Source: Halarcobacter sp. (GTDB lineage: Bacteria > Campylobacterota > Campylobacteria > Campylobacterales > Arcobacteraceae). Taken from it: a stretch of 64,000 nucleotides of DNA. The stretch covers positions 800,001 to 864,000 of the forward strand of contig CP182352.1 in assembly GCA_048571215.1 (NCBI GenBank), written 5' to 3'. The translations under genes were made by a program, and so were the position numbers. Position 1 is the stretch's first letter; the number at the start of each line of letters is the position of its first letter. Below are positions 206-13,050 of the stretch, piece by piece. The notes under the pieces were generated by a model. It searched no databases, was not told the origin of the DNA, and worked only from the letters and a program-made list of their open reading frames with translations.

Positions 206-1534
206 GAGACCGTTCAAAAATCTGTGTCAAGTCACCTAAAGTAACAAATCCATACTTGTTACAACTCTAAATAATTATCCAATCTCCCTTCGAAAAATAT
301 AGCAAGTTGGGAGATTGTTAAACTCCAATTATGCACTGGCTGAGTCCATTTTACTTTTGCATTTAATATTCCCATATACAACAATTTTAAAAGTGAATTC
401 TCATTAGGGAAAGCTCCTTTTGTTTTGGTTAATTTTCTAAATTGCCTATGTACAGATTCAATAATATTTGTAGTGTACATAATCTTTCTTATCTCTTTTG
501 GATATTTAAAATAATAAGATAAATTCTCCCATTTATTTTGCCAAGATTGAAGTACTATGGGATATCTTTTCCCCATTTTTCATCTAGTTTTAAAAGCTCA
601 TCTTCTGCAAGTTCTTTTGTTGTTGCTTGATAAACAAGTTTTAAATCTCTCATAAACTCTTTTTGGTCTTTAGAAGCTACATACTTCAATGAATTACGAA
701 TTTGATGTACAACACAAAGTTGTACTTCGGTATTTGGATATATTGTTTTAATAGCTTCAGGAAAGCCTTTAAGACCATCTACTGATGCAATTAGTATATC
801 TTCTAATCCTCTATTATTTAAATCAGTAAGAACACTAAGCCAGAAGTTTGCTCCTTCACTTTGGGATAAATATAATCCTAATATATCTTTTTTACCATCA
901 ATTCCCATCCCTAAAACTGTGTAAACTGCTTTACTCACATACTTCCCACCATCTTTTATTTTATAATGTATCGCATCAAGCCATACAAATGGATAAATAG
1001 CTTCTAAAGGTCTACTTTGCCAAGCTTTTACCTTATCTATAATTTTATCTGTAATAGTGCTTATTGTTGCACTTGATAATTGTATTTGATATATCTCTTC
1101 AATATGTTTTATAATATCTCTATAGCTTAATCCTAAGCCATACATAGATAATATCTTTTCTTCTATTTCATTAGACATTGTTGTTTGGTTTTTCTTTACA
1201 AGTTGTGGTTCAAAAGAACCTGTTCTATCTCTTGGAGTATTCAATTCAAAGGAACCACTTGTTGATTTTATTGTTTTAGAGCTTTTACCATTCTTTCTAT
1301 TTTTATTTCCTGCAAATACATCTTGAGTTATATGAGAATCTAATTCTGCTTCTAAAGCAGCTTCAACTAATTGTTTTACTAATGGAGCAAGTACTCCATC
1401 TTTACCATTGATATTTTTACCTGCAAGTAAATCTTGTACAGCTTCATTAAAATCAAATTGTTTTTTCTTTTCCATCTATATCAATCCTTATAATATTTAT
1501 TATATCAGACTGACACAGATTTTCTAACACTCCC
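206..1534 (-). mobile_element. IS256-family element, copy 1 (1329 bp)
   Basis: Imperfect IRs GAGACCGTTCAAAAATCTGTGTCA / GGGAGTGTTAGAAAATCTGTGTCA; 8-bp TSD GATTATTT at 198-205 and 1535-1542; apparently the same sequence as copy 2 apart from one base. Confidence 0.95.
259..1475 (-). pseudogene. IS256 transposase split by a -1 frameshift
   Basis: ORFs 555..1475 and 259..576 together equal the 405-aa transposase of copy 2; G-run is G4 here (571-574) vs G5 in copy 2. Confidence 0.85.
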
Positions 1535-5878: not shown

Positions 5879-5930
5879 GGCACTGAGGGCATTGGGAAAT
5901 AGGGGGGGTAGCAACTGAGTCCTAATTTTT

Positions 5931-5955
5931 AAATAAGTAAGTAGTTTACTTATTT
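5931..5955. terminator. Hairpin downstream of NUDIX gene
   Basis: AAATAAGTAA-GTAGT-TTACTTATTT inverted repeat. Confidence 0.4.
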
Positions 5956-5962
5956 TACGAAG

Positions 5963-7292
5963 GGGAGTGTTAGAAAATCTGTGTCAGTCTGATATAATAA
6001 ATATTATAAGGATTGATATAGATGGAAAAGAAAAAACAATTTGATTTTAATGAAGCTGTACAAGATTTACTTGCAGGTAAAAATATCAATGGTAAAGATG
6101 GAGTACTTGCTCCATTAGTAAAACAATTAGTTGAAGCTGCTTTAGAAGCAGAATTAGATTCTCATATAACTCAAGATGTATTTGCAGGAAATAAAAATAG
6201 AAAGAATGGTAAAAGCTCTAAAACAATAAAATCAACAAGTGGTTCCTTTGAATTGAATACTCCAAGAGATAGAACAGGTTCTTTTGAACCACAACTTGTA
6301 AAGAAAAACCAAACAACAATGTCTAATGAAATAGAAGAAAAGATATTATCTATGTATGGCTTAGGATTAAGCTATAGAGATATTATAAAACATATTGAAG
6401 AGATATATCAAATACAATTATCAAGTGCAACAATAAGCACTATTACAGATAAAATTATAGATAAGGTAAAAGCTTGGCAAAGTAGACCTTTAGAAGCTAT
6501 TTATCCATTTGTATGGCTTGATGCGATACATTATAAAATAAAAGATGGTGGGAAGTATGTGAGTAAAGCAGTTTACACAGTTTTAGGGATGGGAATTGAT
6601 GGTAAAAAAGATATATTAGGATTATATTTATCCCAAAGTGAAGGAGCAAACTTCTGGCTTAGTGTTCTTACTGATTTAAATAATAGAGGATTAGAAGATA
6701 TACTAATTGCATCAGTAGATGGTCTTAAAGGCTTTCCTGAAGCTATTAAAACAATATATCCAAATACCGAAGTACAACTTTGTGTTGTACATCAAATTCG
6801 TAATTCATTGAAGTATGTAGCTTCTAAAGACCAAAAAGAGTTTATGAGAGATTTAAAACTTGTTTATCAAGCAACAACAAAAGAACTTGCAGAAGATGAG
6901 CTTTTAAAACTAGATGAAAAATGGGGGAAAAGATATCCCATAGTACTTCAATCTTGGCAAAATAAATGGGAGAATTTATCTTATTATTTTAAATATCCAA
7001 AAGAGATAAGAAAGATTATGTACACTACAAATATTATTGAATCTGTACATAGGCAATTTAGAAAATTAACCAAAACAAAAGGAGCTTTCCCTAATGAGAA
7101 TTCACTTTTAAAATTGTTGTATATGGGAATATTAAATGCAAAAGTAAAATGGACTCAGCCAGTGCATAATTGGAGTTTAACAATCTCCCAACTTGCTATA
7201 TTTTTCGAAGGGAGATTGGATAATTATTTAGAGTTGTAACAAGTATGGATTTGTTACTTTAGGTGACTTGACACAGATTTTTGAACGGTCTC
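5963..7292 (+). mobile_element. IS256-family element, copy 2 (1330 bp)
   Basis: Same IRs as copy 1; 8-bp TSD TTACGAAG at 5955-5962 and 7293-7300. Confidence 0.96.
6022..7239 (+). CDS. IS256-family (Mutator-type) transposase, intact
   Basis: PRDR, WLDA, SVDGLKG, CVVHQIRN, YTTNIIES motifs. Confidence 0.96.
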   Translation: MEKKKQFDFNEAVQDLLAGKNINGKDGVLAPLVKQLVEAALEAELDSHITQDVFAGNKNRKNGKSSKTIKSTSGSFELNTPRDRTGSFEPQLVKKNQTTMSNEIEEKILSMYGLGLSYRDIIKHIEEIYQIQLSSATISTITDKIIDKVKAWQSRPLEAIYPFVWLDAIHYKIKDGGKYVSKAVYTVLGMGIDGKKDILGLYLSQSEGANFWLSVLTDLNNRGLEDILIASVDGLKGFPEAIKTIYPNTEVQLCVVHQIRNSLKYVASKDQKEFMRDLKLVYQATTKELAEDELLKLDEKWGKRYPIVLQSWQNKWENLSYYFKYPKEIRKIMYTTNIIESVHRQFRKLTKTKGAFPNENSLLKLLYMGILNAKVKWTQPVHNWSLTISQLAIFFEGRLDNYLEL

Positions 7293-7500
7293 TTACGAAG
7301 TTCACATATACTCTTCCATACAAAGCTAAAAAAGATACATTTAGTATCTTTTCTTAACTTCTTCTATGTATTAAATTAAACTTATCAATATAAAAAAAGT
7401 TATCGTTATCTATTGAGCCCTATTTTATGCTAATCTCTAAATCATAGGGCTTGTGGGCTTAACTTAATGGCATTGCAACTGTCCCCTTTTATTTTTTATT

Positions 7501-7857
7501 TTAATCTAGTTCTTCCCATATCTCTTTTTTGTCATCTTTATTATAATATTTTTCCAAATCTATCGTTTTAATATTACATTTAGGACATATACCATCTTTT
7601 AAATTAGGGTAATTATATGTTTCTTTACATTTTGGACATTTTGAATACTTTATAGATTGAAATTTTCTTTTTCTTTTAATTGCGTAAATTATTATGATTA
7701 TTCCAATCACGATTTCAATAGTTCCAATGAAAAAACCATCATCCAGTTTTTCATAGTATATTGGACTTAAACCACCTAAGCCAGGTATATTTTCAAGATT
7801 AAAAAAAAAGCTTAATAAACCTTTTGTTAAAATTATTATTCCAAAAATTAAAATCAT
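7501..7857 (-). CDS. Putative immunity protein (2 TM plus C-terminal CPKC...CPKC zinc ribbon)
   Basis: ATGA overlap with upstream tip; hydrophobic N-half. Confidence 0.65.
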   Translation of the reverse strand: MILIFGIIILTKGLLSFFFNLENIPGLGGLSPIYYEKLDDGFFIGTIEIVIGIIIIIYAIKRKRKFQSIKYSKCPKCKETYNYPNLKDGICPKCNIKTIDLEKYYNKDDKKEIWEELD

Positions 7858-8085
7858 TTTGGTACACTTTTGTCATTAGGGTCATAACCTGAAGGTTTAG
7901 GATAAAAATAGTTTTTAACTTTTTGATAAATAATCTCTGCCATACCTTCTCCTCCAACAAAATATCCTGTCTGACTTGATGAAGGTATTCCTAAAGGATA
8001 ACTTTCAATAGCATCTACAAGTAGCTGATTATTTGTATTTGTATTCCTTAACTGGAAATTCCAAGCATCACGGACAGCAATTTTT
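7854..8085 (-). pseudogene. Truncated toxin-tip tail (AVRDAWNFQL...DKSVPK)
   Basis: Coding-like segment starts directly after palindromic site 8088-8106; the upstream part of ORF 7854..8189 runs through non-coding repeats. Confidence 0.5.
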
Positions 8086-8087
8086 AA

Positions 8088-8106
8088 AAAGGTGCCTGTC
8101 ACCTTT
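8088..8106. repeat. Palindromic junction site AAAGGTG-CCTGT-CACCTTT
   Basis: Perfect 7-bp IR with 5-nt spacer; near-identical copies at 9221-9239, 11114-11132, 11872-11890. Confidence 0.85.
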
Positions 8107-8131
8107 ATTTTTTTATTGTTATTTATATATA

Positions 8132-8159
8132 CATTCCCAAGCTGGAGCTTGGGAACGAG
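8132..8159. repeat. REP-like hairpin TTCCCAAGCT-GG-AGCTTGGGAA
   Basis: Perfect 10-bp IR at 8134-8155, GC-rich against AT-rich background. Confidence 0.7.
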
Positions 8160-8196
8160 GAAATGAGGAATAAAAGTTATCGTTATCACTTGACCC

Positions 8197-8292
8197 CTAA
8201 TTTCCTAATTTGCTAATTTCTGTACATTGAGTATATGAATATACATTTGTTATACTTAGCGCGAAAACAATACTTGTTATAAACTTTTTCAT
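8197..8292 (-). pseudogene. Truncated gene start with signal peptide (MKKFITSIVFALSITNVYS...)
   Basis: Cut at site 8190-8197; upstream junction TTTTTCATAAATTTACTTT is also found at the tip/immunity junction near 8725-8743. Confidence 0.45.
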
Positions 8293-8363
8293 AAATTTAC
8301 TTTGTATAATATATTTATCAATCAAATAGTTATCCTTATCACTTGACCCCTAATTCTCTAATT

Positions 8364-8732
8364 CTAATTTTTTTTATTCTTTATTTTATTATTTAAAAGA
8401 AAAAAAATATACACTATTAATATTATCTCAAAAAAATATACATAAACTATATTTATAGTATTTGGTAAAAAAATATAGTACATGTTATGTATAATTAACA
8501 TTAATAAAAAATAAAAGTAAATTTTTAAATTTTTATCAAATAATATTATTAACAAATTTTTAAATATAAATGGTATTAAAATAATGCATATTTCAATAAT
8601 TACTATTATGATAAATATTATTAAAGTTCCTTTATTACCAATATCATTTATCATTTTTTCTGAGTTAAATATGTATAAAAATAAAATTCGTAACAAGAAA
8701 TAAATAGCTAATATAAGAAATATTTTTTTCAT
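8364..8732 (-). CDS. Putative immunity protein (multi-TM)
   Basis: Very hydrophobic 122-aa ORF 4 nt downstream of tip. Confidence 0.65.
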   Translation of the reverse strand: MKKIFLILAIYFLLRILFLYIFNSEKMINDIGNKGTLIIFIIIVIIEICIILIPFIFKNLLIILFDKNLKIYFYFLLMLIIHNMYYIFLPNTINIVYVYFFEIILIVYIFFLLNNKIKNKKN

Positions 8733-8736
8733 AAAT

Positions 8737-9216
8737 TTACTTTCTATTTAATCTGCGATAATTTCTGTCTACTCTAGATGCCCAATCTTGACAATTATTG
8801 TAAACAAAATCATATTTTCTTATATAAGTTACTCCTATGGCTTCTAATAAAATATCATCATCGTAATATTTCAATTGAGAATAATCATTTATAGTAAATC
8901 CTTTATCTACCCTTACTCCATCAGGGAAAAATCCTATTACTGTACCATCTTTTAGAATAAATCCTTCATGAGCCACTAAAATATTTTTATAATCAGCAAT
9001 AGAACCCCTTCTCCCAAAAAGTAATTTATCACCAAGTTTTCTAAATCCACCTTCCTCATTAAACAAATGCACAAAAGCCCCAGTAACAACTCCATTTGCA
9101 AACTTGCCAGCACTTATTTCTGAAACAGTACATGATACTAAAGATGTAAACATAGTTCCCTTTCCTACTCCCAACCTTTTGGTGCTGTAAATCCACTCCA
9201 AAAACTTGCACTCCAT
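8737..9216 (-). CDS. Orphan toxin tip, putative papain-like (H...NNCQDW) domain
   Basis: Conserved GKFANGVVTGAFVHLFN block then AHEGF and YDFVYNNCQDW. Confidence 0.65.
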   Translation of the reverse strand: MECKFLEWIYSTKRLGVGKGTMFTSLVSCTVSEISAGKFANGVVTGAFVHLFNEEGGFRKLGDKLLFGRRGSIADYKNILVAHEGFILKDGTVIGFFPDGVRVDKGFTINDYSQLKYYDDDILLEAIGVTYIRKYDFVYNNCQDWASRVDRNYRRLNRK

Positions 9217-9249
9217 TGATAAAGGTGCCTGTCCCCTTTACTCTAGTCT

Positions 9250-9316
9250 TTGTGCTTATATATAATTATATATATTACTTAGTTAAAAGCTATTGAAAGT
9301 GGAGATTCATCCTCAG
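9250..9316. repeat. 67-bp direct repeat, copy A
   Basis: Identical to 10081-10147; contains palindrome TATATATAATTATATATA. Confidence 0.9.
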
Positions 9317-9323
9317 GGGGGTG

Positions 9324-9599
9324 TTAGTCCTTAAATATGTTCATACAATTCATACAGCGGTGAAAACCTTTTTTATAAAAAATAATATAAATTAAAGGAA
9401 TTGATAAAAGAATATAATTAAGTATAATTTCTAATAAAGAAAAATCACCAAATATTAGAAAGAAAACTACATATATACATATTAGTGTAATAGGTAAAAT
9501 TCTAAATAACAATGTTTTTGAAATATATATATAGTAATTTTTTTTTATATCATTACTATTACATTTCGGACAAGTGTTTTTTAATTCTTCTTTTTTCAT
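9324..9599 (-). CDS. Putative immunity protein, LITAF-like split zinc ribbon
   Basis: CPKC - hydrophobic segment - HRCMNC. Confidence 0.6.
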   Translation of the reverse strand: MKKEELKNTCPKCNSNDIKKNYYIYISKTLLFRILPITLICIYVVFFLIFGDFSLLEIILNYILLSIPLIYIIFYKKGFHRCMNCMNIFKD

Positions 9600-9993
9600 A
9601 TTCTATATATCCTTCTGTTGTTCCTTTTATAATTTTAAAACCTTCTGACCTATTTAATCTATTAGTCATATACCCTGCAAATAATCCTGAGGCTAAACCA
9701 TAAGTTCCTCCAGCAACTCCACCAATTAACATACCTAAAGGCCCCATAACTGATAAAGCAGTTGCACCTATATATACACCACCTACAATTCCTCCTACAA
9801 ATCCACCAATAGAAGTTCTAATAATTGTTTTACTTTCCTCATTCAAGTTTTCTATTTTTGAATCAGCACTTTTTTTCGCTCCAAAACTTGCTGCTTTTCC
9901 TGCCCAATTATTAAACAAATGCACAAAAGCCCCAGTAACAGCCCCATTAGCAAACTTTTCACCACTTATTTCTGATACTAAAGATGTAAACAT
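9559..9993 (-). CDS. Orphan toxin tip with glycine-zipper
   Basis: Conserved block then GGFVGGIVGG...GGVAGG. Confidence 0.65.
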   Translation of the reverse strand: MFTSLVSEISGEKFANGAVTGAFVHLFNNWAGKAASFGAKKSADSKIENLNEESKTIIRTSIGGFVGGIVGGVYIGATALSVMGPLGMLIGGVAGGTYGLASGLFAGYMTNRLNRSEGFKIIKGTTEGYIEYEKRRIKKHLSEM

Positions 9994-10080
9994 TGTTCCT
10001 TTCTCTACTCCCCAACTATTTGGTGCTGCAAATCCAGAAGCTGCAAATCCAGACCAAAATCCAGAACTCCATCTTCAACC

Positions 10081-10147
10081 TTGTGCTTATATATAATTAT
10101 ATATATTACTTAGTTAAAAGCTATTGAAAGTGGAGATTCATCCTCAG
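10081..10147. repeat. 67-bp direct repeat, copy B
   Basis: Identical to 9250-9316. Confidence 0.9.
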
Positions 10148-10217
10148 AGGTGTTAGTCTGTGGTTTTTTTAAGGTGGCAACTGACCCCAAATTTTTTCCT
10201 TTATTTTATTTTTTCCT

Positions 10218-10529
10218 TTATTTTCTTAAATTATCATAACAAGATACTTCTTCCATAGGAAGAAAGACTATTATAAAAACTTCAATAAAAAGTAAAACTA
10301 TTATTGATTCAATTATCTTAAAAATAAAATCGTTATAATTAAAAAAAGAATTATTTAGAAAATATAATAAAGGAACTATAAATAAACCTCCATAATAAAA
10401 TCTGTAAAAAACTCTAAATATCATATTTGTACGATAACATTTGCCTTTAAATTCAAATACTTTTCCTGTTTTTATCAGAAAAATATCGAATGGATTAGTA
10501 ATTAACTTTATTTTTTCAATTATTCGCAT
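10218..10529 (-). CDS. Putative immunity protein (2 TM)
   Basis: Small hydrophobic ORF directly downstream of tip. Confidence 0.6.
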   Translation of the reverse strand: MRIIEKIKLITNPFDIFLIKTGKVFEFKGKCYRTNMIFRVFYRFYYGGLFIVPLLYFLNNSFFNYNDFIFKIIESIIVLLFIEVFIIVFLPMEEVSCYDNLRK

Positions 10530-10544
10530 ACTCTAACTTTAATT

Positions 10545-11138
10545 TTAATGAAATGGATTCACTTTTGTATGAACAGTGTCACTGACACTTCCTGTCTTAT
10601 GTATAATAAATACACCTACACTTGTCGCACCACTACCAGATAATGCTGCGGCAGAACCACCTAAATAATAATAAGGCCTAGACTTAACATCGTTCCATAT
10701 ATAGTCTGCCACTTCTTCAGGATGATTTTTTACTGCATAAACCGTTAACTTATATTCTATTTCTGCTTCCCATTTATTTGCTGGCAATATATTCCCTTCC
10801 TGCCAATCTCTGAAACCAGAAAGCCTACCTAAATAATCTCCATAAGCATAAGCCATTTTTGGAATAGACATAACTCCATCAAATAAATCAACAAAGTTTT
10901 TTACTGTCTTTTTTATAATAGTTCCTCCCTCAGCATTAAACAAATGCACAAAAGCCCCAGTAACAGCACCATTAGCAAATTTACCACCACTTATTTCTGA
11001 AACAGTACCTGATACTAAAGATGTAAACATTGTTCCTTTCTCTACTCCCCAACTACTTGGTGCTGCAAATCCAGAAGCTGCAAATCCAGACCAAAATCCT
11101 GCACTCCATCGATAAAGGTGCCTGTCCCCTTTACTCAT
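10545..11138 (-). CDS. Orphan toxin tip of unknown activity
   Basis: Most complete conserved block GFWSGFAASGFAAPSSWGVEKGTMFTSLVSGTVSEISGGKFANGAVTGAFVHLFN. Confidence 0.7.
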   Translation of the reverse strand: MSKGDRHLYRWSAGFWSGFAASGFAAPSSWGVEKGTMFTSLVSGTVSEISGGKFANGAVTGAFVHLFNAEGGTIIKKTVKNFVDLFDGVMSIPKMAYAYGDYLGRLSGFRDWQEGNILPANKWEAEIEYKLTVYAVKNHPEEVADYIWNDVKSRPYYYLGGSAAALSGSGATSVGVFIIHKTGSVSDTVHTKVNPFH

Positions 11139-11412
11139 TTTTTATTTCCTTTTCAACTTTTAATTCCCAACTACAATTTTTACATATATAGTGATATCTT
11201 TTTTTAGCTAATATTAATGATATATCAATTACTAAAGAAACTAATAAAGATATTACCATTGCATATATATCTAGAAATATATAAACCAGTATACTAAGTA
11301 GTGGGGTAAGAACAAATAAGAATAAAAACCCTCTTTTCTTTTGGTTAAACTTATTTATATTAGAACTACATTGGGGACATTGAACTATAGCACTTTTATT
11401 TTTTAAGTTCAT
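11131..11412 (-). CDS. Putative immunity protein, LITAF-like split zinc ribbon
   Basis: CPQC - 2 hydrophobic helices - HYICKNC. Confidence 0.6.
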   Translation of the reverse strand: MNLKNKSAIVQCPQCSSNINKFNQKKRGFLFLFVLTPLLSILVYIFLDIYAMVISLLVSLVIDISLILAKKRYHYICKNCSWELKVEKEIKNE

Positions 11413-11803
11413 AGTACCCCTTTCCAGTATTAATCATTATTTCAAGACCTTCTTCTATTGGTCTACCCCAGCCAGACACTTCTAATTCAATTGTAAATCC
11501 AACAGTTCCACCAACAAATGCTTCAACAATGGTACCTGCACCAGGAACAATACTTGCTGAAAGAGCACCTTTTACTGCTCCAGCAGCCATTCCAGCTAAT
11601 GAAGAAGTAATAATACGTCTACCACCATCATGAATATTATTAAGTTGTTCATTTACTTCTGATTTTGTTTTCATTTTTGTCCCTTGTGATAAAACAGCAC
11701 CCCAATTATTAAATAAATGCACAAAAGCCCCAGTAACTGCACCATTAGCAAACTTTCCACCACTTATTTCCGAAACTGTACCTGATACTAAAGATGTAAA
11801 CAT
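11396..11803 (-). CDS. Orphan toxin tip with glycine-zipper, related to 9559..9993
   Basis: Conserved block then AGMAAGAVKG...AFVGGTVG. Confidence 0.65.
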   Translation of the reverse strand: MFTSLVSGTVSEISGGKFANGAVTGAFVHLFNNWGAVLSQGTKMKTKSEVNEQLNNIHDGGRRIITSSLAGMAAGAVKGALSASIVPGAGTIVEAFVGGTVGFTIELEVSGWGRPIEEGLEIMINTGKGYYELKK

Positions 11804-11944
11804 TGTTCCTTTCTCTACTCCCCAACTATTTGGTGCTACAAATCCAGACCAAAATCCTGCACTCCATCAATAAAGGTGCCTGTTCCCTTTATTTTTGACC
11901 CTAATTTTTAATTATATAAACTGTCCCGGAATTTTCGAAATTTT

Positions 11945-12151
11945 TTAAAGCGTAATTCCAATTTTTTCAAGTAAATCTTTAAAATCCATAGGTTTTAATT
12001 TGTGATAAATTGTACCGCTAAGAATTATTATAAATAATAAACTTCCTTTCATTTCTATATAATCAAAAAAACTTAAAAAAGTTAATAATATACATATCCA
12101 TAATATAACTAATGAAAAATAAGCAATAATATATTGCAAAAATTTAAACAT
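11945..12151 (-). CDS. Orphan small membrane protein (putative immunity)
   Basis: 68-aa, 2 TM, bracketed by junction sites 11921-11928 and 12175-12193. Confidence 0.5.
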   Translation of the reverse strand: MFKFLQYIIAYFSLVILWICILLTFLSFFDYIEMKGSLLFIIILSGTIYHKLKPMDFKDLLEKIGITL

Positions 12152-12253
12152 ATTAATTTCCTAATATTTATTTTAAAGGTGTTATCTGTGCCCAAAAAGG
12201 AGCATATATATTATAAACTTCATAGGGTTCATAACACTTTGAATCTACTAAGA

Positions 12254-12394
12254 TCATTGATGTATTACTAACAAGGGAAATACTATCTCATTTACCAATT
12301 GTTTTGATTTACTATCCTCTTTTGATAGAGGTACAAAAAAAATAATTGCAATAAAAATTAAAGCAATTGAACCAAAAAGATACTTTTTATCCAT
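12254..12394 (-). pseudogene. Short ORF/gene remnant (MDKKYLFGSIALIFIAIIFF...) at array edge
   Basis: AAAGGA RBS, N-terminal TM, stops after 46 codons. Confidence 0.3.
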
Positions 12395-12558
12395 AAAATT
12401 CCTTTAAAAAAATGAGTAAATAATTATTCTAAAAAAACGTCACATTCTCGTCACAATGAGTTGTTTTTTTCCATAAATTTTGAAATTTCTCTAGGATTGT
12501 TGTTTTTACTTGATATAAATAGTACAATTTAGCTATTTAGAATAAGAAAAGAGTTTAA

Positions 12559-13050
12559 ATGTATAATTTAGTAGTTTATGGAAGTTTAATGAACAAAAAA
12601 GAGCTTCAAAAAGAGGGTATATCTTTAGATGATGTTGTTTTAGTAAAAGTGTTTGGTTATAAAAGAGTTTTTAATCAAGAACCATCTTATCGAATGGTAA
12701 ATTCAGTTAACAGAGCTGTATTAACTATTGGGGAAGATAATGAAAGTTGGTTTAACGCAATAGTGATTAAGAATATAAGTGCAGAGTATCTTAGTATTTT
12801 AGATAAAAGAGAAATAGGGTATGACCAATACTCTTTTAGAGAAGGTGAGGTTATAAGTTATGACAATGAACCTTTGACAAACTGTATTGTTTATAAGGGT
12901 AAAATTGAGAAGATGAGTTTTAATATCCAGCCCAATATGGAGTATTTGGATATTTGTAAAGAGACAGCTAAAAGTTTTGGTGATGAGTTTTATGAAGATT
13001 TTATTAACACTACTTTTAAAAATAGTGATGGGGGATTATCTCTTATCTAG
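12559..13050 (+). CDS. Gamma-glutamylcyclotransferase family protein
   Basis: VYGSLMN and LDKREIGY motifs. Confidence 0.75.
   Translation: MYNLVVYGSLMNKKELQKEGISLDDVVLVKVFGYKRVFNQEPSYRMVNSVNRAVLTIGEDNESWFNAIVIKNISAEYLSILDKREIGYDQYSFREGEVISYDNEPLTNCIVYKGKIEKMSFNIQPNMEYLDICKETAKSFGDEFYEDFINTTFKNSDGGLSLI

Follow-up and report, generated by a model that had tools for sequence, protein, structure and literature searches.

The repeat GGGGWSAS was published in 2013 as the end of the TIRtron (Di Nocera et al. 2013, PMC3733652), and the TnpA-Y1 proteins of subclass 2.1 correspond to TIRYT (Quentin et al. 2018, PMC6006769); the portions of this literature drawn on here report no TIRYT activity. Displacement of Rhs C-termini and arrays of orphan tips have also been described (Jackson et al. 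2009, PMC2935791; Kirchberger et al. 2017, PMC5361080), and the models in the parts of these accounts used here rely on homologous or homology-facilitated illegitimate recombination, with no known involvement of an integrase. The two subjects meet in a 64,000 nt stretch of Halarcobacter sp. (GCA_048571215.1, CP182352.1 positions 800,001 to 864,000, forward strand; the window), where an array of orphan Rhs tips and putative immunity genes is punctuated by short sites. These are solo TIRtron ends, not a new recombination site, and their link with toxins appears to be new.

Sites and modules of the window array

A first-pass annotation of this DNA had listed thirteen related 8-mers, and all are present on the minus strand in the same orientation, at the core positions given below. 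Its consensus, GGGG[A/T]CA[G/A], fits six of them strictly (7479, 8190, 8343, 9229, 10181 and 11122); the other seven depart from it. The 8-mer by itself is uninformative, since a relaxed 7-mer version has about 2,100 genomic matches, and the usable signal is that of flank, core and arm combined. A matrix trained only on the second tip array of the genome (matrix 1; about 7.2 million strand-positions scored) places 8096, 9229, 10181, 11122 and 11880 among its top 21 matches and the remaining eight window sites at 9.8 bits or less. With class matrices built from other genomes alone, nine of the thirteen score strongly (17 bits or more), and the four left over, at 5915, 7479, 11895 and 12186, are degenerate or truncated. 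The three arm classes that had been proposed (A, B and C) hold, and a fourth, class D, is present at 11921 with arm TTTATATAATT. The class-A palindrome does fold, at -2.6 to -5.8 kcal/mol with a stem of 7-8 bp; classes B, C and D hardly fold. Class-C cores here often end in A where the published motif has G. Sites are about 25 nt long, all thirteen are direct repeats, and none has a GTAG foot. The features are as follows.

5915..5922, minus strand: degenerate class-B site, a TIRtron core with a short remnant like an IS110 right end (9.8 bits, matrix 1); marks the downstream edge of the array, where a NUDIX gene stops 36 nt away
5963..7292, plus strand: IS256/Mutator-family element (PF00872), a later insertion with an 8-bp duplication
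7413..7420, minus strand: class-C TIRtron end, arm AGATAACGATAACT
7479..7486, minus strand: TIRtron core with a class-B stub of 4 nt; the 7501 gene stops 14 nt before it
7501..7857, minus strand: putative immunity gene, 118 aa, with a membrane segment and a zinc ribbon
7854..8087, minus strand: remnant of an Rhs tip (final 77 codons), truncated exactly at the class-A arm end
8085..8109, minus strand: class-A TIRtron end, core 8096-8103, hairpin AAAGGTG-ACAGG-CACCTTT
8137..8160, no strand assigned: second palindromic repeat, unrelated to the sites, also at cassette borders in the second and third arrays and in genome G003
8190..8197, minus strand: class-C TIRtron end, arm GTGATAACGATAACT
8197..8292, minus strand: signal-peptide-like stub of 31 codons, terminating at site 8190
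8343..8350, minus strand: class-C TIRtron end, following the 8364 gene at a distance of 13 nt
8364..9216, minus strand: cassette of pre-tip repeat, tip (to 8737) and putative immunity gene (8364-8732)
9218..9242, minus strand: class-A TIRtron end joined to the pre-tip repeat, core 9229-9236
9247..9329, minus strand: leader module, starting with the end of another dispersed repeat family
9324..10075, minus strand: cassette of pre-tip repeat, Gly-rich tip (to 9559) and putative immunity gene (9324-9599)
10163..10194, minus strand: class-B site in which core 10181-10188 meets, at AG/CT, an IS110 right end of about 20 nt
10218..11110, minus strand: cassette of pre-tip repeat, tip (to 10545) and putative immunity gene (10218-10529)
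11111..11135, minus strand: class-A TIRtron end with core 11122-11129, following the 11131 stop at a distance of 1 nt
11131..11868, minus strand: cassette of pre-tip repeat, tip (to 11396) and putative immunity gene (11131-11412)
11869..11934, minus strand: three stacked ends, class A (11880-11887), truncated core (11895-11902) and class D (11921-11928)
11945..12151, minus strand: orphan putative immunity gene flanked by two sites
12186..12193, minus strand: degenerate site, upstream array border (6.5 bits, matrix 1)
12423..12519, minus strand: 97-nt non-coding piece, 92% match to the start of the third array

The cassettes open with a conserved pre-tip stretch found near the end of RHS-repeat/core proteins of 2240-2300 aa. 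No Pfam family scores above its cut-off in the tips and partner genes, and NCBIfam gives no match for the five tip frames tried, so the labels 'toxin' and 'immunity' are based on homology together with gene order. The tip of 8364..9216 yields a weak LRAT-like lead (score 0.85; family on 40% of cluster members). The pair in 9324..10075 has a homologous pair in G003 (54% and 43%), and immunity gene 10218-10529 with its site is 97.6% identical over 378 nt to a tip-less copy there. Homologues of the orphan gene at 11945 lie behind tips in the third array and in G090. The leader module has a second copy at 10079-10158, and the joint of site and pre-tip repeat seen at 9218..9242 is common to five tips in the genome. 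The 97-nt piece runs directly into a site in the third array and is possibly a promoter region; promoter-like matches within the array are at chance level only. The IS256-type element is outside the site system, has many copies of 99-100% identity in the genome, and is bypassed in run X5, where 5954 is joined to 7293.

Genes are cut at the sites, as had been claimed: the 77-codon tail begins at the arm end of site 8096 and the stub ends at 8197. A full-length Rhs of 2269 aa in G126 has a C-terminus that matches the tail (8087-7857) at 52% identity, and the gene following that Rhs matches the tail's partner gene at 46%. Homologues of the 7501 gene occur behind the G126 Rhs and in the second and third arrays (46%, 45% and 73%), the third-array paralogue being followed by a class-A site instead of the class-B stub. 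In the third array a homologous tail of about 10 codons stands behind the same 79-nt module as the window tail; one module adjoins two alleles of the tip, each at a point of its own, and both cuts are flush with one arm.

TIRtron ends, Y1 enzymes and an IS110 element

Classes A, C and D recur in relatives as inward-facing inverted repeats around Y1 genes. The earlier proposal that a mobile-DNA enzyme recognises the sites as ends is supported. A quick tree gives one Y1 clade per arm class, with no hybrids between the three Y1 classes evident by eye; class B has no Y1-flanking inverted pair. Judged by motif and tree, as distinct from the published authors' profile, the enzyme is a TIRYT of HUH/Y1 subclass 2.1. 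The single Y1 gene of the genome (C1:2560378-2560911; HUH motif NHYH, Y--NP motif YVEANP) belongs to clade A, is frameshifted, has a left end and no right end, and adjoins the second array, which has the same tips and sites as the window array. Among clade-A homologues, in the 37 of 79 loci covered by the count, a plus-sense site lies within 350 nt upstream at 20 loci (wrong sense at 5) and a minus-sense site downstream at 21 (wrong sense at 6). Perfect stutters permit a joint after core base 6 or 7 in 8/12 cases, resembling REP-transposase cleavage at C|T and C|A.

Two kinds of enzyme had been suggested, and of these a HUH/Y1 RAYT-like transposase fits classes A, C and D, while a tyrosine recombinase goes unsupported. 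An integron integrase is encoded about 83 kb from the array (C1:895245-896189), with other tyrosine recombinases elsewhere in the genome, and the class-A hairpin is dyad-like; but no strong site lies near any such gene, the direct-repeat sites have by eye no attC layout, and every class matches a Y1 or IS110 end. The match of the classes to Y1 ends largely refutes action of an integron integrase or shufflon-type enzyme on the sites, which seems to us scarcely credible.

Class B, by sequence comparison, is a TIRtron core joined to an IS110 right end. Its arm corresponds to the IS110 end up to the CT core in 7/7 full genome copies, whose flanks differ; the IS110 end is clear at 10181 and amounts to a few bases at 5915 and 7479. 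In G094 a full IS110 element sits at the AG of a class-D end with both predicted guides matching, and in 7/10 members of its clade, which relatives carry, the right-hand flanking sequence is TIRtron-like. Predicted bridge-RNA guides match the elements' own flanks in the tabulated IS110 families, and guides matching the TIR core (L218, L219, L221, L222, L225 and L243) vary among elements and match classes A, C and D, all as sequence matches. None of the seven full copies in the Halarcobacter genome has a TIR-matching guide, and literature searches found no IS110 with a TIRtron end as target.

An IS110 bridge recombinase guided by full or half matches to the TIRtron core could in principle be the main joint-maker. 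The G094 element and the flanks of its clade favour this, as does the half-match recombination reported for IS621, but an IS110-like end is present at only 3/13 window sites, two of them few-base remnants. Moreover, IS110 acts at the core, whereas most cassette joints lie at the far arm end or 15-200 nt into the IS110 end, and the resident copies have no suitable guide; we consider this explanation very improbable.

Distribution of the sites and assembly of the arrays

As the first-pass annotation anticipated, the sites cluster at tip arrays in the genome and its relatives, and not in housekeeping DNA. Four tip arrays, spanning 16.7 kb or 0.46% of the genome, hold 26 of the 47 genome-wide matches (about 120-fold over their share), and three of the four have no Y1 gene. 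The tip loci have no parent Rhs gene, and nearly all of the unrelated immunity-like genes in three arrays end close to a site. Of 33 strong sites, 18 have a stop codon of the same strand no more than 60 nt upstream, against 18% for random intergenic positions, and solo sites also follow ordinary genes, for example at either end of an ABC-transporter operon. In 4/20 congeners the NUDIX gene directly adjoins the following gene, and a TIR cluster behind it was seen in none of the 20.

Across this bacterial family, a co-oriented site lies within 3 kb behind the Rhs core at 15/38 loci (11/34 without the four training loci) and is absent from the other 23, against 0/146 control tiles, which are mostly ordinary DNA and not matched variable islands. 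An Rhs core and a non-IS200 Y1 gene lie within about 3 kb in 7/16 genomes having both (five genera, by eye). Sites are found at the tip loci of 8/8 genomes with multiple or displaced tips of the window family; G009, whose single pair is full-length, lacks them at that locus. Several relatives have an intact TIRtron behind an Rhs-immunity pair, G080 and G090 have facing end pairs resembling miniature elements, and G065 and G084 share a decaying cassette (97% identical). No co-oriented site lies within 3 kb at the multi-core Rhs arrays of G113, G025 and G098 or at 9/11 haemagglutinin-type loci, and arrays can therefore form without them.

Where other samples diverge from the window, the breakpoints are at sites or close to them, in keeping with the earlier claim. 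A near-identical contig of run X5 departs from the window at 7411, at site 7413, and an X8 contig, 97% identical over 8364-9105, departs at the immunity stop 13 nt before site 8343; these are low-depth contigs (depth 7-10) with breaks seen from the window side only. One X8 contig has pre-tip repeat sequence at both termini, as expected of a circle or of a tandem array, and window modules recur in other species and samples beside other neighbours. Alignment ends lie within 15 nt of a site in 13/42 cases against an 11% background, a count that includes reciprocal hits and is confounded by the position of sites at gene ends. The integron- or shufflon-like order that had been envisaged was not borne out: comparison of cassette order reveals no reordering or inversion of the same cassettes, runs X1, X2 and X4 contain no joint distinguishable from repeat copies, and the window sites are co-oriented because sites generally sit behind a stop codon.

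A plausible scenario, to which we give about even weight, is that solo TIRtron ends mark the joints of the array and are likely to be the downstream joint for new modules. A TIRtron would land behind an Rhs-immunity pair, and Y1 would nick the element's end in single-stranded form, with GGGG[AT]C^AG and a point close to the far arm end as the probable positions; rejoining of that end to other DNA would give solo ends, stutters and flush-cut genes. A new tip would then enter on its 5' side by homologous recombination in the pre-tip repeat of about 200 nt, and on its 3' side with the TIRtron end as joint, through Y1 strand transfer or short homology. Finally, an IS110 clade guided to TIRtron ends would split some of them. 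Array-building is on our best reading opportunistic, with several enzymes and no dedicated shuffler.

The ends could instead mark the joints and not make them. TIRtrons and miniatures would insert behind genes, in AT-rich and dispensable DNA, and decay to single ends, and arrays would form by homologous recombination only, with recombination in the pre-tip repeat (the circle model) carrying the neighbouring end along. The preference for positions behind stops, which extends to non-toxin loci, the site-free arrays, the miniature-like pairs of G080 and G090, and the joint common to five tips, explicable by passive copying, all agree with such a process. It does not explain how a first cassette reaches loci without resident Rhs homology, the two different cuts flush with one arm, or why nearly all unrelated immunity-like genes of three arrays end near sites, and the enrichment in the four arrays also counts against it; we regard it as a serious but rather unlikely alternative.

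A dedicated system, in which Y1 excises modules as single-stranded circles and reinserts them at other ends in the manner of an integron, is suggested by the layout of the second array, where a divergent enzyme gene is followed by co-oriented cassettes each closed by a site, by the recurrence of modules beside other neighbours and by the X8 contig with the pre-tip repeat at both ends. We judge it improbable. One array mixes ends of three Y1 clades and IS110, which also leaves the single site family with a single enzyme proposed earlier unsupported; the sole enzyme of the genome is a frameshifted clade-A gene; most of the 20 Y1 loci examined are plain elements between two inward-facing ends or have no ends; and neither reordered cassettes nor joints distinct from repeat copies were seen.

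Returning to opportunistic assembly at TIRtron ends, the usable warhead store that had been proposed is not upheld, as no full-length Rhs with the array's pre-tip repeat was found in the genome, whose one full Rhs is of another type than the array tips. With no carrier Rhs of the window tip family found there, the arrays would serve today, if at all, as an immunity library. A bolder and speculative idea, which we think unlikely, is that TIRYT are the missing recombinases of polymorphic-toxin arrays, stacking modules cut at ends behind immunity genes, with an IS110 clade homing to those ends. If true, a HUH single-strand cassette system would give rise to mobile immunity libraries, and an RNA-guided IS110 clade would have reprogrammed its guides toward TIRtron ends.

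Comparison with known systems

Several memberships were considered and found not to fit. The array does not look like part of an integron, the integrase being distant and without such sites beside it; the sites do not have attC structure, given their length and short class-A stem (by eye and folding); a shufflon is contradicted by the direct orientation of 13/13 sites and by the nearest tyrosine recombinase, which is broken and about 57 kb away; and a REPtron by the missing GTAG foot and the 47 genome matches.

The comparisons that follow rest on the cited portions of each source. REPtrons (TnpA-REP of E. coli, PDB 4ER8; Corneloup et al. 2021, PMC8266576) have an enzyme of the same superfamily, and their C|T or C|A single-strand cleavage and strand transfer is the model for the proposed Y1 step; their REPs are GTAG-footed and number hundreds of copies, whereas here the core is GGGG, copies are in the tens and only class A folds. 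IS621-type IS110 elements (Durrant et al. 2024, PMC11208160) are alike in the CT core, in a long left non-coding end with guides for both target flanks and in inserting into another element's repeat, but the target here is a TIRtron end, not a REP repeat.

The rAID-1 clusters of Bacteroidales (bioRxiv 10.1101/471110) likewise have co-oriented orphan immunity genes, repeated intergenic motifs and a recombination enzyme beside the cluster, and form a defensive library. They differ in having a XerD-like tyrosine recombinase at the 5' end of every cluster, whereas here the enzyme is HUH/Y1 and absent from three of four arrays, tips are kept with immunity genes, and none of the eight PF00589 matches in the genome adjoins an array. 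Orphan Rhs tip arrays are also strings of tip and immunity genes, each led by a conserved core piece, and recombination in that piece is part of the model proposed here too; arrays of the window type lie away from any parent gene, and most of their modules end at a transposase end. There is likeness, too, to TIRtrons and TIRYT themselves (PMC3733652, PMC6006769), with a HUH and Y--NP enzyme between inward-facing GGGGWSAS repeats, further genomic copies of the repeat that stand alone, in pairs or in clusters, and no GTAG REPs; to that published account, which in its cited parts gives no function, Rhs toxin link, direct-end cargo or IS110 targeting, the arrays add a setting among orphan toxin tips.

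TIRtron ends in the toxin-tip array

The 13 sites of the toxin-tip array near 5907..12193 (array 1) lie at the positions and in the single, minus-strand orientation that the first-pass annotation described. The strict consensus is fitted by six of the 13, and the genome, 3.61 Mb in size, has about 2,100 occurrences of a relaxed form; by itself the 8-mer is weak, but taken with flank and arm its signal is strong. A matrix built from the genome's second array only places five window sites among its top 21 positions, and class matrices trained on other genomes only recover 9 of the 13. The site core is GGGGWSAS, the motif given in the text of two papers (PMC3733652, PMC6006769) for the ends of TIRtrons, small elements with the HUH/Y1 enzyme TIRYT, and the window sites are members of this end family. 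These two papers were the only TIRYT literature found by search; a survey in one of them (PMC6006769) places TIRYT proteins in about 15% of species, and no function is shown for them in the literature found. Searches over listings of open-access articles returned no paper joining TIRYT or RAYT ends to Rhs tips or toxin loci and none on IS110 targeting of such ends.

The genome contains a single Y1_Tnp gene, at the edge of array 2. A class-A site lies 119 nt upstream and is directed into the gene, whose frame shifts after codon 177, at a poly-A run (C1:2560895), and whose right end is gone. Inward-facing class-A repeats flank Y1 homologues across phyla at 20/37 loci on one side and 21/37 on the other (37 loci examined of 79 fetched). 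Among family genomes a second Y1 clade is bordered by class C and a third by class D, and none of the Y1 genes examined has class B, a TIRtron core joined to an IS110 right end, as its own end. Dense clusters of TIRtron ends surround Y1 genes at L041:13234-19300 and L043:3600-12700, loci of two related genomes (G036 and G043), and their modules resemble, by eye, haemagglutinin-type toxin tips and partners; L041:13470-14138 encodes an intact clade-A Y1 protein. At L174:5452 (G070) a class-C-like end and a Y1 gene are placed directly at the end of an apparent CRISPR array.

Strong sites are found within 60 nt behind a same-strand stop in 18/33 cases, compared with 18% of random intergenic positions, and behind a facing stop in 2/33; this placement holds at non-toxin loci also. 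The co-orientation of sites in the array therefore follows from that of its genes and does not serve as proof of the integron-like design that had been proposed. No replication-strand rule for site orientation was seen: arrays on the minus strand occur to either side of the skew turning points.

Array organization, cargo and association with toxin loci

Array 1 is a 6.7-kb insert. In 4/20 congeners a gap of 6-21 nt separates the NUDIX gene and the gene at 12559, and the other 16 carry different DNA at this point, without a cluster of such sites. An IS256-type element accounts for 1.3 kb of the insert and is missing from a contig of another study; two copies of one such element occupy window positions 206-1534 (frameshifted) and 5963-7292, and there are about 17 copies genome-wide. 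Three further arrays are present in the genome (C1 coordinates):

Array 2, C1:2553637-2561168 (locus L161): eight or so tip/immunity modules and the Y1 gene
Array 3, C1:2376900-2378740 (locus L162): decayed
Array 4, C1:3395300-3397300: short, with similar sites; follows the one complete Rhs in the genome, which is not of this type

Array 2 together with the Y1 gene is an insert flanked by a 147-nt duplication of the 3' end of a host gene and is absent from two related genomes (G002 and G017). Its left border is formed by an IS110 right end of about 55 nt.

Four modules in array 1 consist of a conserved stretch of ~200 nt, a variable tip and then a small gene, in most cases hydrophobic; there are also a fifth, truncated tip and a solitary small gene. 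The pre-tip stretch is present in 14/151 family genomes and sits near the end of proteins of 2240-2300 aa with FG-GAP, RHS repeats and an Rhs core, and the cut tip corresponds to the C-terminus of one such full-length Rhs, in G126, as its partner gene does to the gene that comes next there. The array tips are therefore orphan Rhs tips, presumptively toxic and with partners that would confer immunity. No firm activity could be assigned to the tips from Pfam, NCBIfam or Atlas, and promoter and terminator counts within the array are at chance level. Nine or ten tips of the pre-tip-repeat type are distributed over three arrays; no full-length Rhs of this type was found anywhere in the genome. A remnant of a parent Rhs was sought at the genome's type II secretion operon and none is there, and a 46-codon frame at 12254-12394, considered as a remnant of the gene upstream of Rhs, showed no similarity in a test that is weak because two of its five query frames were mistranslated. 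Full-length FG-GAP/RHS toxins are encoded directly upstream of a type II secretion operon at L047 (G027), L048 (G009) and L050 (G126); toxins in this position have signal-peptide-like starts and occur in several genera, and an export link with type II secretion is possible.

Site matches are concentrated at these loci: of 47 in the genome, 26 fall inside the four tip arrays, which together make up 16.7 kb. An Rhs core and a non-IS200 Y1 gene occur together in 16/151 family genomes and are no more than about 3 kb apart in seven of these, with proximity read by eye, IS200-like status assigned by bit score, and related genomes not independent of one another; the seven come from five genera, and four or more Y1 clades are represented. 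Intact Y1 genes stand behind Rhs loci in strains of the G080, G111 and G126 types. Within 3 kb behind an Rhs core a co-oriented site is present at 15/38 loci (11/34 without the four training loci) and an opposite-oriented one at 7; 5 short loci were dropped, and none of the 146 control tiles, which are mostly ordinary DNA, has a site. Against the link, no co-oriented site lies within this distance at 23/38 Rhs loci, and none was found at the multi-core Rhs arrays of G113, G025 and G098 or at 9/11 haemagglutinin-type loci. G065 and G084 have a site, a tip, a partner gene, a second site and a Y1 fragment between two housekeeping genes; a tip swap between them was considered, but both carry the same cassette, which is static.

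Class-B ends and IS110 elements

Class B stands apart. All seven full IS110 copies in the genome end in the class-B arm followed by CT and then by unrelated flanks, and 13/31 sampled IS110 right ends sit on a TIR-like core. In G094 a complete 1350-nt IS110 (L215:1501-2852) interrupts a class-D end at its AG, and the same end is present without the insertion in G115 (L170); the left non-coding end of the element has two guide positions, which match both halves of the class-D end. A partial IS110 element in G015 abuts a class-C arm. Site 10181 is thus a TIRtron end that was hit by IS110 and afterwards trimmed, and 5915 and 7479 probably have the same history. The TIR-targeting type of IS110 is retained in this genome only as a 3' fragment (C1:1715234-1715488), and a role for IS110 as the main joiner of cassettes is very improbable. 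Two class-B sites at C1:474329 and 478258, each behind a stop codon, face outward from a glycine-betaine-type ABC transporter operon that they flank.

A well-supported IS110 clade of ten proteins has a TIRtron-like right flank in 7 and not in 3.

IS110 clade with TIRtron-matching guides, left-end guide stretches: L215 (G094), L218-L225, L229, L243

By sequence, the readable guides of this clade match TIRtron ends of classes A, C and D, in core as well as arm. The clade is a mobile element targeting the ends of another element, and with guides for several end classes it may represent a natural set of reprogrammed bridge RNAs.

The leader of the tip arrays corresponds to the first 30 nt of a dispersed repeat of ~270 nt, of which seven co-oriented copies lie in 10 kb at C1:1711800-1721800 and others at about 15 other places; the repeat often adjoins IS110 left ends, and a class-B site at C1:1718906 truncates one copy. 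The leader module is not an attC half-site, being the end of this repeat without a matching far arm. An integron integrase (C1:895239-896243; TIGR02249 over cut-off) is located beside a guaA-like gene followed by divergent accessory genes, and was rejected as the acting enzyme. We give almost no weight to the tyrosine recombinase that was among the enzymes first proposed.

Joints, mechanism and known systems

Several departures between related sequences fall at or close to sites. A contig from sequencing run X5, 99% identical over 750 nt, departs from the window at 7411, at site 7413. One from X8 shares module 8364-9105 at 97%, departs at the stop codon, which lies 13 nt ahead of site 8343, and 72 nt further on enters a pre-tip repeat again. 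In G003 the 10218 gene is present with its site, at 97.6% identity, and without the tip, and within the genome a single 79-nt module with a terminal class-A arm is joined to two alleles of one tip at two points. Alignment ends lie within 15 nt of a site in 13/42 cases against an 11% background, but reciprocal matches enter this count twice and sites are located at gene ends. Passive pile-up of ends, with homologous recombination alone acting on the tips, we consider rather unlikely.

Sites are also re-copied in tandem (25 cases at 362 sites, with 12 perfect duplications), and by our reading 8/12 perfect duplications allow a joint after core base 6 or 7. For REP transposases, cleavage falls at C|T or C|A and it is a 3' C that is joined (PMC8266576). 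A dedicated Y1 system acting through circles is quite improbable: repeat copies account for the candidate circles and rearranged joints in runs X1, X2 and X4, which are nearly identical to the window and may be its source sample, and nowhere in the genomes and samples compared do the same cassettes appear in a different order; among these samples X6 matches the G003 sequence and is not independent of it, and X7 consists of short pieces only.

The most likely mechanism, in which we place about even confidence, combines TIRtron ends, Y1 joining, homologous recombination in the pre-tip repeat and splitting by IS110. In this reading TIRtrons insert behind Rhs-immunity pairs, nicking and rejoining by the Y1 enzyme at the TIRtron end would leave solo ends, homologous recombination in the pre-tip repeat would bring in new tips while the TIRtron end would provide their downstream joint, and some ends would be split by IS110. 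Models of Rhs tip displacement, in the portions of PMC2935791 and PMC5361080 that describe them, name no enzyme and leave the non-homologous downstream joint of a new tip as an open point. The locus ties this joint problem to TIRYT proteins, naming an enzyme, a site and a probable cut position; if passive accumulation holds instead, there is still a clear description of target preference for the 3' ends of toxin loci. In its functioning the array is somewhat like both rAID-1 and an integron, yet by the defining tests of each it belongs to neither.
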